Source: a virus
Taxonomy: Duplodnaviria > Heunggongvirae > Uroviricota > Caudoviricetes
Reading direction: 5' to 3' (one strand)
DNA length: 64,000 nt
Virus record (IMG/VR): IMGVR_UViG_3300032220_000751
Part shown: positions 7,721 to 33,008 of the stretch, piece after piece
Numbering within the stretch: position 1 is the first letter of the stretch
Layout of the letters: the number at the start of each line of letters is the position of its first letter
Position numbers and translations under genes: made by a program
Notes under the pieces: generated by a model
Seen by the model: the letters and a program-made list of their open reading frames with translations, nothing else
Database searches by the model: none
What the model was told of the DNA's origin: nothing

Positions 7721-7793
7721 GTTCCATTAGCTCACTTGGTAGAGCAACAGACCAATAATCTGTAGGTCGCCGGTTCGATTCCGGTATGGAACC
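7721..7793 (+). tRNA. Atypical tRNA-like gene, anticodon AAT (nominally Ile), probably degenerate
   Basis: Acceptor GTTCCAT/ATGGAAC, D stem GCTC/GAGC, anticodon stem ACAGA/TCTGT with loop CCAATAA, T arm GCCGG-TTCGATT-CCGGT; C33, C15 and no encoded CCA. Confidence 0.7.
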
Positions 7794-7815
7794 CCTATAC
7801 TAGCAGTAACCCCTC

Positions 7816-8122: not shown

Positions 8123-8134
8123 AATCCCCATATA

Positions 8135-8712
8135 GCCAGGGTGGTGAAATCGGTAGACACAGCGGACTTATCGTCATGATTAATTCATGATATTGAGCAC
8201 CTTCGAAAAATGAGTCAGTAGTCTAGTGAGACAGCTAGAGCAGCAGCTGGGCGTAACGACTCAATCGAAAGACGTTGGTGAATCCTTTCAAATTCGGCGA
8301 ACACTAAACTTGAATGAATTGTGCCTGTCCGGGAACAGGGGAACAACACTTTAGTCCATTGTAATAGATGGTAAAGGTGCCAAGCGAAAGCATCCCAATT
8401 CAAGCATGTCAACGCCGAGCCAAGCCTAAACAAGAGATTACAGACTAAGACACTCTTGGGATTGTGATGTGTGCCGAAGTCGTGAATGTTTACGAGTTAG
8501 GATAGGCATAATCCATGGAAGGTGTAGAGACTATACGGAAGGGATCTAAGTTTGGCGTCACACTCCTATGTCGGGGGCTTCGTTCAAATATGATCAAGAC
8601 ATAGTCCAGACCACAAACAGCGTAAGCTGGTAGTGAAAACTATAGTGGTAAGAAAATCCGCCGCGTCAGTCTAATAAACGGCGTACGGGTTCGAGTCCCG
8701 TGCCTGGCACCA
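8135..8712 (+). tRNA. trnL: tRNA-Leu(UAA) split by a group I intron (exons 8135-8169 and 8653-8712)
   Basis: 5' exon GCCAGGGTGGTGAAATCGGTAGACACAGCGGACTT, 3' exon AAAATCCGC...ACGGGTTCGAGTCCCGTGCCTGGCACCA; spliced anticodon loop CTTAAAA, long variable arm, encoded CCA. Confidence 0.9.
8170..8652 (+). mobile_element. ORF-less group I intron (trnL-type core)
   Basis: P1 GACTTA/TGAGTC with U8169.G8212 wobble; P3 CCTTTC/GGAAGG; P4 TTCGGCG/CGCCGAG; P7 GACTAT/ATAGTC (R GTAGAGACTATA, S AAGACATAGTCC); terminal G8652. Confidence 0.9.
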
Positions 8713-8734: not shown

Positions 8735-8809
8735 AGTTACTCATGCAAGGTTCGAGTCCTTGAATGTTCTGAACTTTAATCGGTCAGAAATCCATTGAGA
8801 TGAGTAACT
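8735..8809 (+). ncRNA. tRNA-like RNA with T arm first (permuted, YrlA-like topology)
   Basis: 10-bp terminal stem AGTTACTCAT/ATGAGTAACT, T arm CAAGG-TTCGAGT-CCTTG, second stem AATG.TTCTGA/TCAGAA.CATT; no clear D arm. Confidence 0.5.
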
Positions 8810-8979
8810 AACCTAGTTAAACTTGCGGTGTATATCTAGGAAACATGCTCCTCTGAGTTAAGGGTGTTGTAATCGCTAGGTTGGGTTTAATTTTCATGTT
8901 TATACCAATCGGTAATTACGAAACCGCCTGTTTTTTAACCGGTTTACTTTATTAGTGCACGCGCAACGTATCTACTCCA

Positions 8980-9250
8980 TGGATGTAAATAGATGGAGTT
9001 GGAGAAATTGCCTGGTAGTTTACAGCGAGGTTAGGTCTCAAGGAGGTAGATTCTTCCTGAGTACCTTGACATGAGGCACTAGATGAGCAGGGTCGACTTC
9101 TCCACGGAAGTTCCCTCTCGTGGGAATCTGTCATTAGACGTGCTGAACTAATAGAGTGAACTGTCATTGTGATGCTTACGGGGACATCGGTAAAAACCCC
9201 TGCAATTACCAAGTGAGGCTCGCATGAAGTAATTAGACCCGAAACATCCA
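8980..9250 (+). ncRNA. Unassigned structured RNA with hammerhead-like junction elements
   Basis: TGGATGT(A)/GAAACATCCA, GGGTC 9090-94/GACCC 9236-40 abutting GAAA; core strand noncanonical. Confidence 0.3.
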
Positions 9251-9329
9251 AACCAAACAGTTGTAGTTTTAACCATTTTTCTATTCTAGTCAAATAGTAA
9301 ACGTGGATACGTAAGAGCGAACGGGTACA

Positions 9330-9414
9330 GATCAATTAGCCGGACCGTCAATCCGGAGAGTCCTAATTGATCAACAAGGGGGAGGGTGATCCACTAACGC
9401 CGCTTCATCCTCCC
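9330..9414 (+). ncRNA. Two strong hairpins 5' of the hammerhead
   Basis: GATCAATTAG/CTAATTGATC (9330-39/9363-72) and GGGAGGGTGA/TCATCCTCCC (9380-89/9405-14). Confidence 0.45.
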
Positions 9415-9423
9415 ACTTCTAAA

Positions 9424-9499
9424 CATTACTGACGAGCCGTTCAAGTCGGCATCAATGGGTGAAAGGCCCACGAAATCACAGTAGCATCGTGATCTAATG
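9424..9499 (+). ncRNA. Type I hammerhead ribozyme with branched stem II
   Basis: Stem I CATTA/TAATG, CTGACGA 9429-35, G9436-C9471, GAAA 9472-75, stem III ATCAC/GTGAT, cleavage triplet AUC ending at 9494. Confidence 0.65.
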
Positions 9500-10063
9500 A
9501 AGGGTAAAGTCTTACCCTCTACTGACTGCGCTTAGGCGTGGAGGTCGGTGAAGTTCTTGGAGGAGCCGCGAGGACACTATTCGTGACTGGATAGTGAACT
9601 ACCCGGTAGCTTGCCAAGAATGGCTACGCGCGCTTTGAATTTAAGCCCTCTCTGATCAATTGGGTTTAATCCTCAGACCGCGAAGTTGTAAGCGAAAGAA
9701 TCCTTACTTAAGGGCCAACCGAAAGGAAGCCGCGATGGGTAGGAAACATGGAAGAGTCTCCTTACGGGAGGTGGCCCCTAAAGTAGTACCATGTTGTGGA
9801 ACGTGGTGTTACCGATTTTCTCTAAGCCTTGAGTGGCAAGTGCCATGAGGTAAAGCTTCCATGTTTTTGATTCTAGTAGTAAGCAGCCTATAGTTTGTCA
9901 TCGCTTGCGTTTTTCGATTGACGCGGGATCACGCCTCAGATGGGCAAGTGTTGGTTGAAGCACCTACCACTTGCTCATTTGCGGCCTGGCTACTCCCTGC
10001 TGGCATGTCTCGGTCTAGTCAACTGAGTCGTCCTAGTATAGTGACTGGATGGTAAACTATGGG
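9500..10063 (+). ncRNA. Large unassigned multi-domain structured RNA
   Basis: TTCTTGG/CCAAGAA 9554-9620; 11-bp 9744-54/9856-66; 16-bp 9887-9902/10048-63; 13-bp 9938-50/9968-80; no credible ORF. Confidence 0.55.
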
Positions 10064-10085
10064 ATGTTTATTTAATGCATATTAA

Positions 10086-10121
10086 CCACATGGGGCTAGT
10101 CCTCATGTGGGTTTTATGCCC
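10086..10121 (+). terminator. Terminator closing the RNA island
   Basis: CCACATG/CATGTGG stem then GTTTTATGCCC. Confidence 0.65.
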
Positions 10122-10150
10122 TTAGTTTTCTTTTTGTTAATAAAGGAAGT

Positions 10151-10573
10151 GTGATGGATAAGTCTAAGTTTCCTGATAACTTCGATTTGTTTACTACGAT
10201 TGGGACGGTACGTCATCCTCCCCAAAGTCGTACCTCAGTGCTGGTATATGGGTTAAATCGTGACATTAATGATGGGATAAAACTTATTGAATCCTTGGAT
10301 AGTAATGACATGGTTGCCAAAATCTTTAATGACAATGGCGCTTTAATCTGGGAAGTAACCTATAGCGATAAAGTGATCGACTGGGCTGTAGAGACGTTGA
10401 TTCACTTGAGGGTGGTTCTGGTCAGGTCGCAGAAGTACATTGATACTGCATTCCCAGTTCGTGAGCAAGTACTCATGGATATAGTGGACTTCTTAAGCCT
10501 GGTGGCGTTCCGACGCAAATTCAGTGTGGAGATCCACATCTGTAAACAAAGGAAGAATGATGTACGAGAATAA
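10151..10573 (+). CDS. Hypothetical protein
   Basis: AAGGA RBS, 140 aa. Confidence 0.7.
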   Translation: MMDKSKFPDNFDLFTTIGTVRHPPQSRTSVLVYGLNRDINDGIKLIESLDSNDMVAKIFNDNGALIWEVTYSDKVIDWAVETLIHLRVVLVRSQKYIDTAFPVREQVLMDIVDFLSLVAFRRKFSVEIHICKQRKNDVRE

Positions 10574-17617: not shown

Positions 17618-18046
17618 ATGACTGTTTCTGTTGGCGATACCGTACAACTTCGTTTCGATGGCACTCCTCGCGGCATTCTCATCAGCGGCCCCCGGATGGT
17701 TGCTCAATCCGTGTCCAGCGATGGTACTGTCTTCTGCGTGACTCCCGGTATTTCGGGTGGTTCTGGCTTTTACGCAGGTACCTACAAGGATGGCGAAGTC
17801 GTCGTCGTCGATAACGCCATTCCTGACGGTATGGTGGAAGCTCTGCAAGAGATCCGTTCGCAGATTGATCCGGCAGGTCCCTATGCAGTTGAGATCTACA
17901 CGGTGCCTGCTGTTGGTAACTGGCAGTTCATCATCTACCAGAAACATAACCCGCAAAGCGTGCTGGATGGTTTCTTGTTCGGCACTCCGCTGGCCGATCC
18001 GACATTCATCGCTCGCATCGTTCAGAACCTGACCGAGCTGTTCTAA
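17618..18046 (+). CDS. Hypothetical protein with divergent DUF2158-like N-terminus
   Basis: VGDTVQL...SGPRMV...VFC resembles the gene at 16325. Confidence 0.7.
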   Translation: MTVSVGDTVQLRFDGTPRGILISGPRMVAQSVSSDGTVFCVTPGISGGSGFYAGTYKDGEVVVVDNAIPDGMVEALQEIRSQIDPAGPYAVEIYTVPAVGNWQFIIYQKHNPQSVLDGFLFGTPLADPTFIARIVQNLTELF

Positions 18047-32384: not shown

Positions 32385-33008
32385 ATGTCCAAGACTAAAA
32401 TCAAATTGGATAGTCTGGTGCAAGAACCCCAACGTCCTCGTACTTCGTTGGAGGTACAGCAAATCCTTAATCGCTATCTGAAAAGCGATTGCATGCAGTT
32501 CTATCTTTTCCAACTCGAACGGTTCAGTAAAGAACTGGATCAGGCACGTCTGAATGGCGAGCCTAAGTTCTACTTCGAGGAAGAGAAGAATGCAGCTTCT
32601 GAGAAGTATCGTCTGTACTTCTCAGTTGCAGCCTATTCCACTGAACCTGAGCCGCTTTTCCGTATCCAACTCTCGGCTGACACATCTGGTCAGCCTTATG
32701 CTGGCTGGCGTGCTGAAAACCTGCCGTGGACTGATGCCCCACAGTGCGTCTGGAAACATGGTCTCGACGGTCGTGCAGTAGCGGCCTATCTGACGACCTT
32801 GTCGTATTACATGACTCCCCTGAACGCACTCTTGGCCAGGAATACCGGTGAACATCTGTCGAAGTACTATGGTCGTGTGATGGCGGGTCATCCTGACACC
32901 ATACCCAACCAAGTGCACTTCAGTGTTTACACCAATGACTGTCATGTGCACGTCGAGACTTACCACGATGGTAAAGCTCGTGGCACGATTGACATCTTCG
33001 CCAATTAG
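32385..33008 (+). CDS. Hypothetical protein
   Basis: ORF track 32271..33008; ATG 32385 after GGAG. Confidence 0.8.
   Translation: MSKTKIKLDSLVQEPQRPRTSLEVQQILNRYLKSDCMQFYLFQLERFSKELDQARLNGEPKFYFEEEKNAASEKYRLYFSVAAYSTEPEPLFRIQLSADTSGQPYAGWRAENLPWTDAPQCVWKHGLDGRAVAAYLTTLSYYMTPLNALLARNTGEHLSKYYGRVMAGHPDTIPNQVHFSVYTNDCHVHVETYHDGKARGTIDIFAN

Follow-up and report, generated by a model that had tools for sequence, protein, structure and literature searches.

The DNA analysed here (64,000 nucleotides; the window) comes from a phage genome of 310 kb that is complete and has terminal repeats. A virion protein places the genome among the phiKZ-like jumbo phages, and the closest named relative is Burkholderia phage FLC9 (41% amino-acid identity). 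A 2.5-kb stretch of the window without credible open reading frames (ORFs) contains a tRNA-Ile gene, an intron-split tRNA-Leu gene, and, at 9424 to 9499 on the plus strand, a 76-nt element with the core of a hammerhead ribozyme (Table 1). The element reads CAUUA/CUGACGA/GCCG-UUCAAGU-CGGC/AUCAA/UGGGU-GAAAG-GCCCA/C/GAA/AUCAC-AGUAGCAUC-GUGAU/C/UAAUG. The nucleotides required of a hammerhead core, C3 U4 G5 A6 N7 G8 A9 and G12 A13 A14, are found at 9429 to 9435 and 9472 to 9474, and the pair A15.1-U16.1 (A9475-U9493) is followed by a nucleotide allowed at H17 (C9494). Further downstream, the sequence from 9495 to 10125 folds far better than its shuffles (z = -5.9), and a terminator-like hairpin at 10086 to 10110 is followed by a U-rich tail that extends to 10120. 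The next ORF begins at 10151.

Table 1. Parts of the hammerhead element and its predicted downstream product, in window coordinates
Feature	Position	Strand	Description
5' flank	9422-9423	+	A two bases before stem I; invariant in 10/10 relatives
Stem I, 5' strand	9424-9428	+	CAUUA (positions 2.5-2.1); pairs with 9495-9499; compensatory changes in 5/5 pairs
Catalytic core	9429-9435	+	C3 U4 G5 A6 C7 G8 A9; CTGANGA invariant in 10/10 sequences
Stem II (hairpin A)	9436-9450	+	4-bp stem, 9436-9439/9447-9450; loop UUCAAGU, 9440-9446
Variable linker, hairpin A to hairpin B	9451-9455	+	AUCAA; 3-63 nt in relatives, often with a hairpin of its own
Hairpin B	9456-9470	+	U-GGGU-GAAAG-GCCC-A; inserted between stem II and G12
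Invariant C between hairpin B and G12	9471	+	C in 10/10; no covariation with 10.1
Core G12 A13 A14	9472-9474	+	Invariant
Stem III	9475-9493	+	AUCAC/GUGAU; 9-nt loop, 9480-9488; A15.1-U16.1 invariant; 4/5 pairs covary
C17, predicted cleavage site	9494	+	Non-G in all relatives
Stem I, 3' strand	9495-9499	+	UAAUG (positions 1.1-1.5); pairs with 9424-9428
Predicted 3' cleavage product, structured noncoding RNA (~620 nt)	9495-10120	+	No ORF of at least 70 aa

The tRNA-Leu(UAA)-like gene occupies 8126 to 8712 (+) and is split after GGACUU by an intron of ~480 nt. The intron contains the group-I-like core strings CAACGCCGAGCCAAGC and GAAGGUGUAGAGACUA, and the 3' half of the gene ends in GGUUCGAGUCCCGUGCCUGGCACCA. 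This split tRNA is not reported by ARAGORN or by Rfam at gathering score. Part of the region (8588 to 8661) has 85 to 88% identity to intron-like DNA in Agrobacterium phage Atu_ph07 and in crAss-like phages. ARAGORN and the Rfam tRNA model RF00005 call no tRNA at the hammerhead element, and the only tRNA call in the window is at 7721 to 7795.

We searched the window with a hammerhead descriptor consisting of stem I, CTGANGA, any 6 to 60 nt, GAAA, a stem III hairpin, U-H, and the second strand of stem I. The element is the sole match with at least 5 bp in both stems. Among 150 random windows of the same size, generated with a first-order Markov model (same dinucleotide statistics) and scanned on both strands, there were 0 strict matches and, with stems relaxed to 4 bp and 3 bp, 0.16 matches per window. 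A complete core match set against 0 strict random matches is thus not expected by chance. A weaker descriptor match lies at 17639 to 17689 (-), with a 4-bp stem I, a 3-bp stem III, and CTGATGA...CGAAAC; about 0.16 such matches per window are expected by chance.

The hammerhead structure is close in energy to the minimum free energy (MFE) fold, at -15.9 versus -16.7 kcal/mol for the element and -43.7 versus -44.1 kcal/mol when flanks are included. For the isolated 84-nt segment, the nearest-neighbour MFE is a competing fold, and the fold z-score is -0.87. The loop III sequence AGUAG (9480 to 9486) can pair with UUACU (9426 to 9430), a segment that spans stem I and C3-U4. This pairing gives the competing MFE fold in the folding model and may represent an inactive alternative conformer.

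Relatives in other phages and their conservation

Related loci could not be found with two flanking proteins as queries, and DNA patterns were therefore used. Pattern scans and a covariance model together recovered 10 distinct relatives, from the jumbo phages PaBG, RSL2, RSF1, FLC6, and FLC9 and from uncultured contigs. A pattern combining the core with the T-loop hairpin (hairpin A) and requiring G at position 10.1 matched 101 loci, 100 of them chance or coding matches and one true, in a 258-kb contig that proved to be Pseudomonas phage PaBG (KF147891). The PaBG counterpart of the element lies at 121,565 to 121,641, with the predicted cut after A121,636. Patterns built on hairpin B plus CGAAA, and looser forms of these, found L103 (a 67-nt form, the same as L105, L106, and L222), L104, L224, L226 (the same as Paraburkholderia contig L235), and L230, which is Ralstonia phage RSL2. 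The FLC6/FLC4-type phages, RSF1, and FLC9 were added by blastn and covariance models. A metagenome scan gave 7 matches, 2 of them real (L222 and L224); in the others, an unrelated GGGTGAAAGGCCC hairpin came after a tRNA T arm or a piece of coding sequence. Relaxing the stems of hairpin B revealed no further members in viral contigs. Hairpin B is present in every sequence recovered with the T-loop, and the T-loop hairpin in every sequence recovered with hairpin B; the co-occurrence of hairpins A and B is therefore not an artefact of the query.

Every carrier genome has exactly one copy of the element, which is unannotated in cultured phages such as PaBG and RSL2. Model searches (R1 and R2) covered the gathered loci and 17 genomes. 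Model R2 was negative in RP31, Churi and phiHQ (both phiKZ-like), Eowyn, PCH45, and FLC1-1B, and the positive controls were found. A weak R1 match at window position 32465 to 32532 (-) is without the core and was judged to be due to chance. The blastn match in Sinorhizobium phage phiM12 is an unannotated tRNA-like T arm with no ribozyme. The tRNA-like sequence concerned (L234, 1450 to 1526; about 95,720 to 95,796 of the phiM12 record) lies between tRNA-Met and the next CDS and has a D arm, a CCA anticodon-like loop, the T arm GGTTCAAGTCC, and a terminal CCA.

Bacterial genomes yielded one match only, in a Paraburkholderia contig identical to viral contig L226. The ribozyme region of L226, a provirus-class contig of 172 kb, is identical in contig NZ_CAAJGK010000011.1 of Paraburkholderia sp. 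BCC1886 (L235). This identity points to a jumbo phage or prophage-like element inside the Paraburkholderia isolate assembly.

The element is always intergenic and on the strand of the flanking genes. It lies between protein genes, 1 to 3 nt past a stop codon, in FLC9 and L104, and upstream of tRNA clusters in PaBG and L103. Among the carrier phages there is no homology in the flanks of the element, whether in the downstream or upstream RNA or in the flanking proteins. We take this to mean that the ribozyme itself is the conserved unit, and that its general role would be the separation of transcripts and not service to one particular RNA. The RtcB ligase (PF01139) is absent from 6/6 carrier genomes searched.

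No variation is seen in 10/10 sequences at CUGANGA, at the C before G12, at GAA, or at A15.1-U16.1. At position 17, the relatives have C, A, C, U, C, C, U, U, and C and never G. Stem I has 5 bp in every member, with covariation at all pairs, and the base adjoining it never pairs with its 3' counterpart across the relatives, so that the helix is fixed at exactly 5 bp. For the five compact members, 95.7% of the cells are paired, compared with 68.5% in shuffled alignments, and 13/19 pairs show compensatory changes. None of 500 shuffles was as good, and controls with slid partners were 33 to 51% paired. In a table of seven sequences, 122 of the 126 cells are canonical (shuffle mean, 85; maximum, 100) and 13 of the 18 pairs are compensatory. 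The three helices (I, II, and III) of a hammerhead are thus present, each with covariation.

The members with the largest inserts are especially informative. In L104, RSL2, RSF1, and L226, a stem III helix of 9 to 10 bp (3 + 6 bp in L226) closes an insert of 146 to 202 nt, after which the U-H and the 5-nt partner of stem I come exactly as predicted. Closure of stems III and I across such distances argues that the hammerhead fold itself is selected. An unconstrained fold of the 289-nt RSL2 element reproduces the whole architecture. The topology is type I in all relatives, including those with a long stem III: the ends exit through stem I, and stems II and III are closed. We regard it as very probable, from the comparative sequence data, that a selected hammerhead fold is present at 9424 to 9499.

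The inserts themselves deserve comment. The RNA inside stem III of the RSL2 group (~170 to 200 nt; L233, 3020 to 3210; L236, L237, and L244) is almost 100% identical in RSL2, FLC6, and FLC4-11C. It is conserved although the neighbouring linker has been replaced. This insert and the otherwise unrelated insert of L104 (1863 to 2084, -) have in common the short motif GGCCGCCUCU...GCCGCC. The insert of the RSL2 group may be an undescribed RNA domain carried in the ribozyme. Among the large stem III inserts, we found no common fold beyond the RSL2/RSF1 pair.

The preliminary description of the element, made from the window sequence, had listed core strings that can all be read directly at 9424 to 9499. 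Its assignment to type I, with a predicted cleavage site after C9494, gains support from the conservation and compensatory changes in the 10 phage sequences, and the core, whose variation in homologs it had named as grounds for refutation, is invariant in 10/10. The search with hammerhead covariance models that it had proposed turned out differently. Scans of the window and of 7 related loci at gathering score matched none of the Rfam hammerhead families (clan of RF00163, RF00008, and RF02276), and with permissive filters on 8800 to 10400 neither a hammerhead nor any other family reached E <= 10 at the element.

The junction and its two hairpins

The relatives also decide which hairpin is stem II. 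Position 10.1 (G, G, A, C, G, G, and U across the relatives) changes in concert with the 3'-terminal nucleotide of the T-loop hairpin (C, C, U, G, A, C, and A), with 6/7 combinations canonical, whereas the C before G12 never changes. The G10.1-C11.1 closing pair of the preliminary description (9436/9471) is thereby rejected, and the T-loop hairpin, inside which 10.1 pairs, is identified as stem II. That description had stem II replaced by two hairpins, one of them T-arm-like; both hairpins are indeed conserved, but the notion of a branched stem II has to be given up, as the T-loop hairpin is itself stem II. Judged from these covariation patterns, hairpin B, the linker, and the invariant C are an insertion between 11.1 and G12, which would make the junction a four-way junction. 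The insertion separates 11.1 (9450) from G12 (9472) by 21 nt here and by up to about 80 nt in FLC9. In no member does 11.1 adjoin G12, as it does in a three-way junction. The linker can change independently: between RSL2 and FLC6 its hairpin has been replaced wholesale yet still pairs, and the rest is nearly identical.

Hairpin A has a 7-nt T-loop-like loop with an invariant closing G-C, and 3/4 of its stem pairs covary. TTCAAGT closed by G-C is a common sequence of tRNA T arms, present in tRNAs examined, and the identity with a tRNA T-loop claimed earlier is therefore correct. Across the relatives, the consensus of the loop is U-(U/G)-C-(A/G)-A-G-(U/G), and the G-C closure is constant, as in the tRNA T arm. 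The T-loop rule describes a pentad with U1 and A5 forming a reverse Hoogsteen pair, a purine at position 4, and a gap between positions 4 and 5 (PMC4810234). The letters of hairpin A match this pentad in 10/10 sequences (UUCAA, UUCGA, UGCAA).

In hairpin B, GGTGAAAGGCC is identical in 8/10 sequences, a figure that partly reflects ascertainment, as three members were found with the hairpin-B pattern. The exchanges seen are U-A/C-G in the outer pair and G-C/A-U in the second pair; otherwise, it is almost invariant. Hairpin B can alternatively be read as GGG-UGAAAGG-CCC, with a 7-nt loop having U1 and A5. Read in this way, the B loop, UGAAA(G/A)G, fits the T-loop pentad rule in 9/10 sequences, the exception being FLC9 (GUAAAG). 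The change of U to G at position 2 of the A loop coincides with an altered B loop in RSF1 and FLC9 (2/2, versus 0/8 among UUC loops), a weak hint of a loop-loop contact.

In ordinary natural hammerheads, tertiary stabilisation comes from loop II contacting a loop or bulge of stem I (PMC3088659). By analogy, the T-loop hairpin and hairpin B together most likely form a tertiary brace needed at cellular Mg2+ concentrations. A brace of this kind fits the constant lengths of the 5-bp and 4-bp stems and the invariance of the A that precedes stem I by two bases.

Predicted cleavage and alternative readings

We consider it likely that the element is a self-cleaving type I hammerhead with a distinct, conserved sub-architecture. 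The core would fold during transcription of the co-directional RNA or gene array, and G12 and G8 would assist the 2'-OH of C9494 in attacking the phosphate between 9494 and 9495. Cleavage between C9494 and U9495 is predicted to be constitutive and co-transcriptional. Its upstream product would carry a 2',3'-cyclic phosphate on C9494, and its downstream product would be a structured RNA of ~620 nt that starts with a 5'-OH at U9495 and ends at the terminator. The T-loop hairpin, hairpin B, and possibly the conserved A of the 5' flank would supply tertiary stabilisation. The cut, the chemistry of its ends (taken from the hammerhead class), and the function of the hairpins are inferences. As to the AUC cleavage site placed earlier at 9494, C17 is present as C9494 and is non-G in the relatives, and cleavage there is a prediction from the sequence. 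It is plausible that the predicted cleavage sets the 5'-OH end of the large downstream RNA. A point against the ribozyme assignment is the place of the insertion between 11.1 and G12, beside the general base, where it might interfere with the core; in the study by Perreault et al. (2011; PMC3088659), activity fell when the core had small insertions.

Cleavage might instead be conditional; the preliminary description had suggested that the insertion could make it depend on a ligand or protein. In this reading, the twin T-loop-type hairpins would be a putative platform that binds a phage protein, a tRNA-modifying enzyme, or the elbow of a tRNA, and the bound factor would switch cleavage. By their letters, both loops conform to the T-loop rule (U1, A5, and a purine at position 4), and T-loop pairs are a known RNA device for docking tRNA elbows (PMC4810234). 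Phage tRNA clusters contain or adjoin several of the elements. Sequence conservation of hairpin B, in its stem as well, goes far beyond what a simple helix demands, and in RSF1 and FLC9 position 2 of the A loop changes along with the B loop. However, the element of RSL2, FLC9, and L224 is flanked by protein genes and has no tRNA in its neighbourhood, the B loop of FLC9 (GUAAAG) breaks the T-loop rule, and an intramolecular tertiary contact explains the strong conservation equally well. We therefore regard a gated ribozyme as unlikely. The more specific proposal, that the twin hairpins are an elbow-like or elbow-docking platform through which a tRNA or an elbow-binding protein (e.g., a T-arm modification enzyme) gates self-cleavage, seems very unlikely to us. 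If true, it would provide a natural macromolecule-responsive hammerhead that couples the processing of a phage RNA island to the tRNA pool.

The fold might also be derived from a hammerhead without being able to cleave, keeping only the scaffold as a structural or protein-binding module. The position of the insertion next to G12 and the missing Rfam match are compatible with such a loss. Yet phages with unrelated flanks have retained the 11 core nucleotides, A15.1-U16.1, and a non-G at position 17 without exception, for which there would be little reason in the absence of catalysis, and stem I is held at 5 bp, a length that suits product release. We judge a non-cleaving module highly improbable. 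Chance resemblance within a generally structured RNA island, suggested by the hairpin-dense region and the z-score of only -0.87 for the isolated segment, has a negligible probability given 0 strict matches in 150 random windows and is refuted by the ten relatives, with their compensatory changes in all helices and their invariant core.

Relation to known RNAs and significance

The self-cleaving hammerhead that we favour resembles the type I hammerheads of bacteria, prophages, and phages (RF00163; PMC3088659) in its identical core, A15.1-U16.1, and NUH site. It also shares with them an open stem I, closed stems II and III, and an intergenic position in co-directional phage gene arrays. It differs in that an insertion of 20 to 80 nt (linker, hairpin B, and invariant C) parts stem II from G12, whereas Perreault et al. 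(2011) described core insertions of only 1 to 2 nt (A6a, U13a, and G2a/C2b; PMC3088659). Further differences are the loop II that looks like a T arm, a stem I that is a bare 5-bp helix without a loop, bulge, or obvious pseudoknot partner, and the failure of every Rfam hammerhead model to detect the element.

Two other groups of RNAs invite comparison. Hairpin A is like the tRNA T arm or T-loop (Zhang and Ferre-D'Amare 2016; PMC4810234) in its G-C closure and its 7-nt loop U-U-C-R-A-N-N, with U1, A5, and the purine at position 4 kept in all relatives; its stem has 4 bp and not 5, and the acceptor, D, and anticodon arms are lacking. The two neighbouring pentad-compatible loops, in an RNA in or near tRNA gene clusters, recall the interdigitated double T-loops of RNase P, T-box stem I, and the ribosomal L1 stalk (PMC4810234), although the B loop of FLC9 breaks the rule. 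The first likeness lies in the letters, and the second is a resemblance and not membership.

Martick et al. in 2008 reportedly described a discontinuous hammerhead in the 3'UTR of mammalian CLEC2 genes, with a very large insert in one stem. L104, RSL2, RSF1, and L226 are similar in that their halves lie 146 to 202 nt apart and are joined by a long-range helix. In contrast to the CLEC2 type, the insert is in stem III of a ribozyme from a bacterial virus, and the copy in the window is compact, with a 9-nt loop III.

Our literature search found no earlier account of ribozymes in PaBG, of a stem II resembling a T arm, or of a hairpin inserted at this point of the core. Because the junction differs from a three-way junction and the curated models do not score the site, we conclude that this is a variant of the hammerhead class with an apparently undescribed build and not a routine member.

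No small ribozymes have been studied better than hammerheads, whose natural forms have been described as one three-way-junction plan with idiosyncratic loop contacts. A four-way-junction form, with its hairpin beside G12 and its tRNA-style loop II, would mean that an additional helix can be tolerated, or even put to use, by the core, and the variant would give structural studies a new tertiary solution. Such a form would also explain why current covariance models miss such elements. In the phage genome studied here, the element predicts the exact 5' end of a large, highly structured phage RNA. The variant is carried by cultured phage-host pairs, namely, PaBG with Pseudomonas aeruginosa PAO1, RSL2 and RSF1 with Ralstonia, and FLC6 and FLC9 with Burkholderia glumae. 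These pairs make the old question of what hammerheads do in bacteria and phages directly testable.
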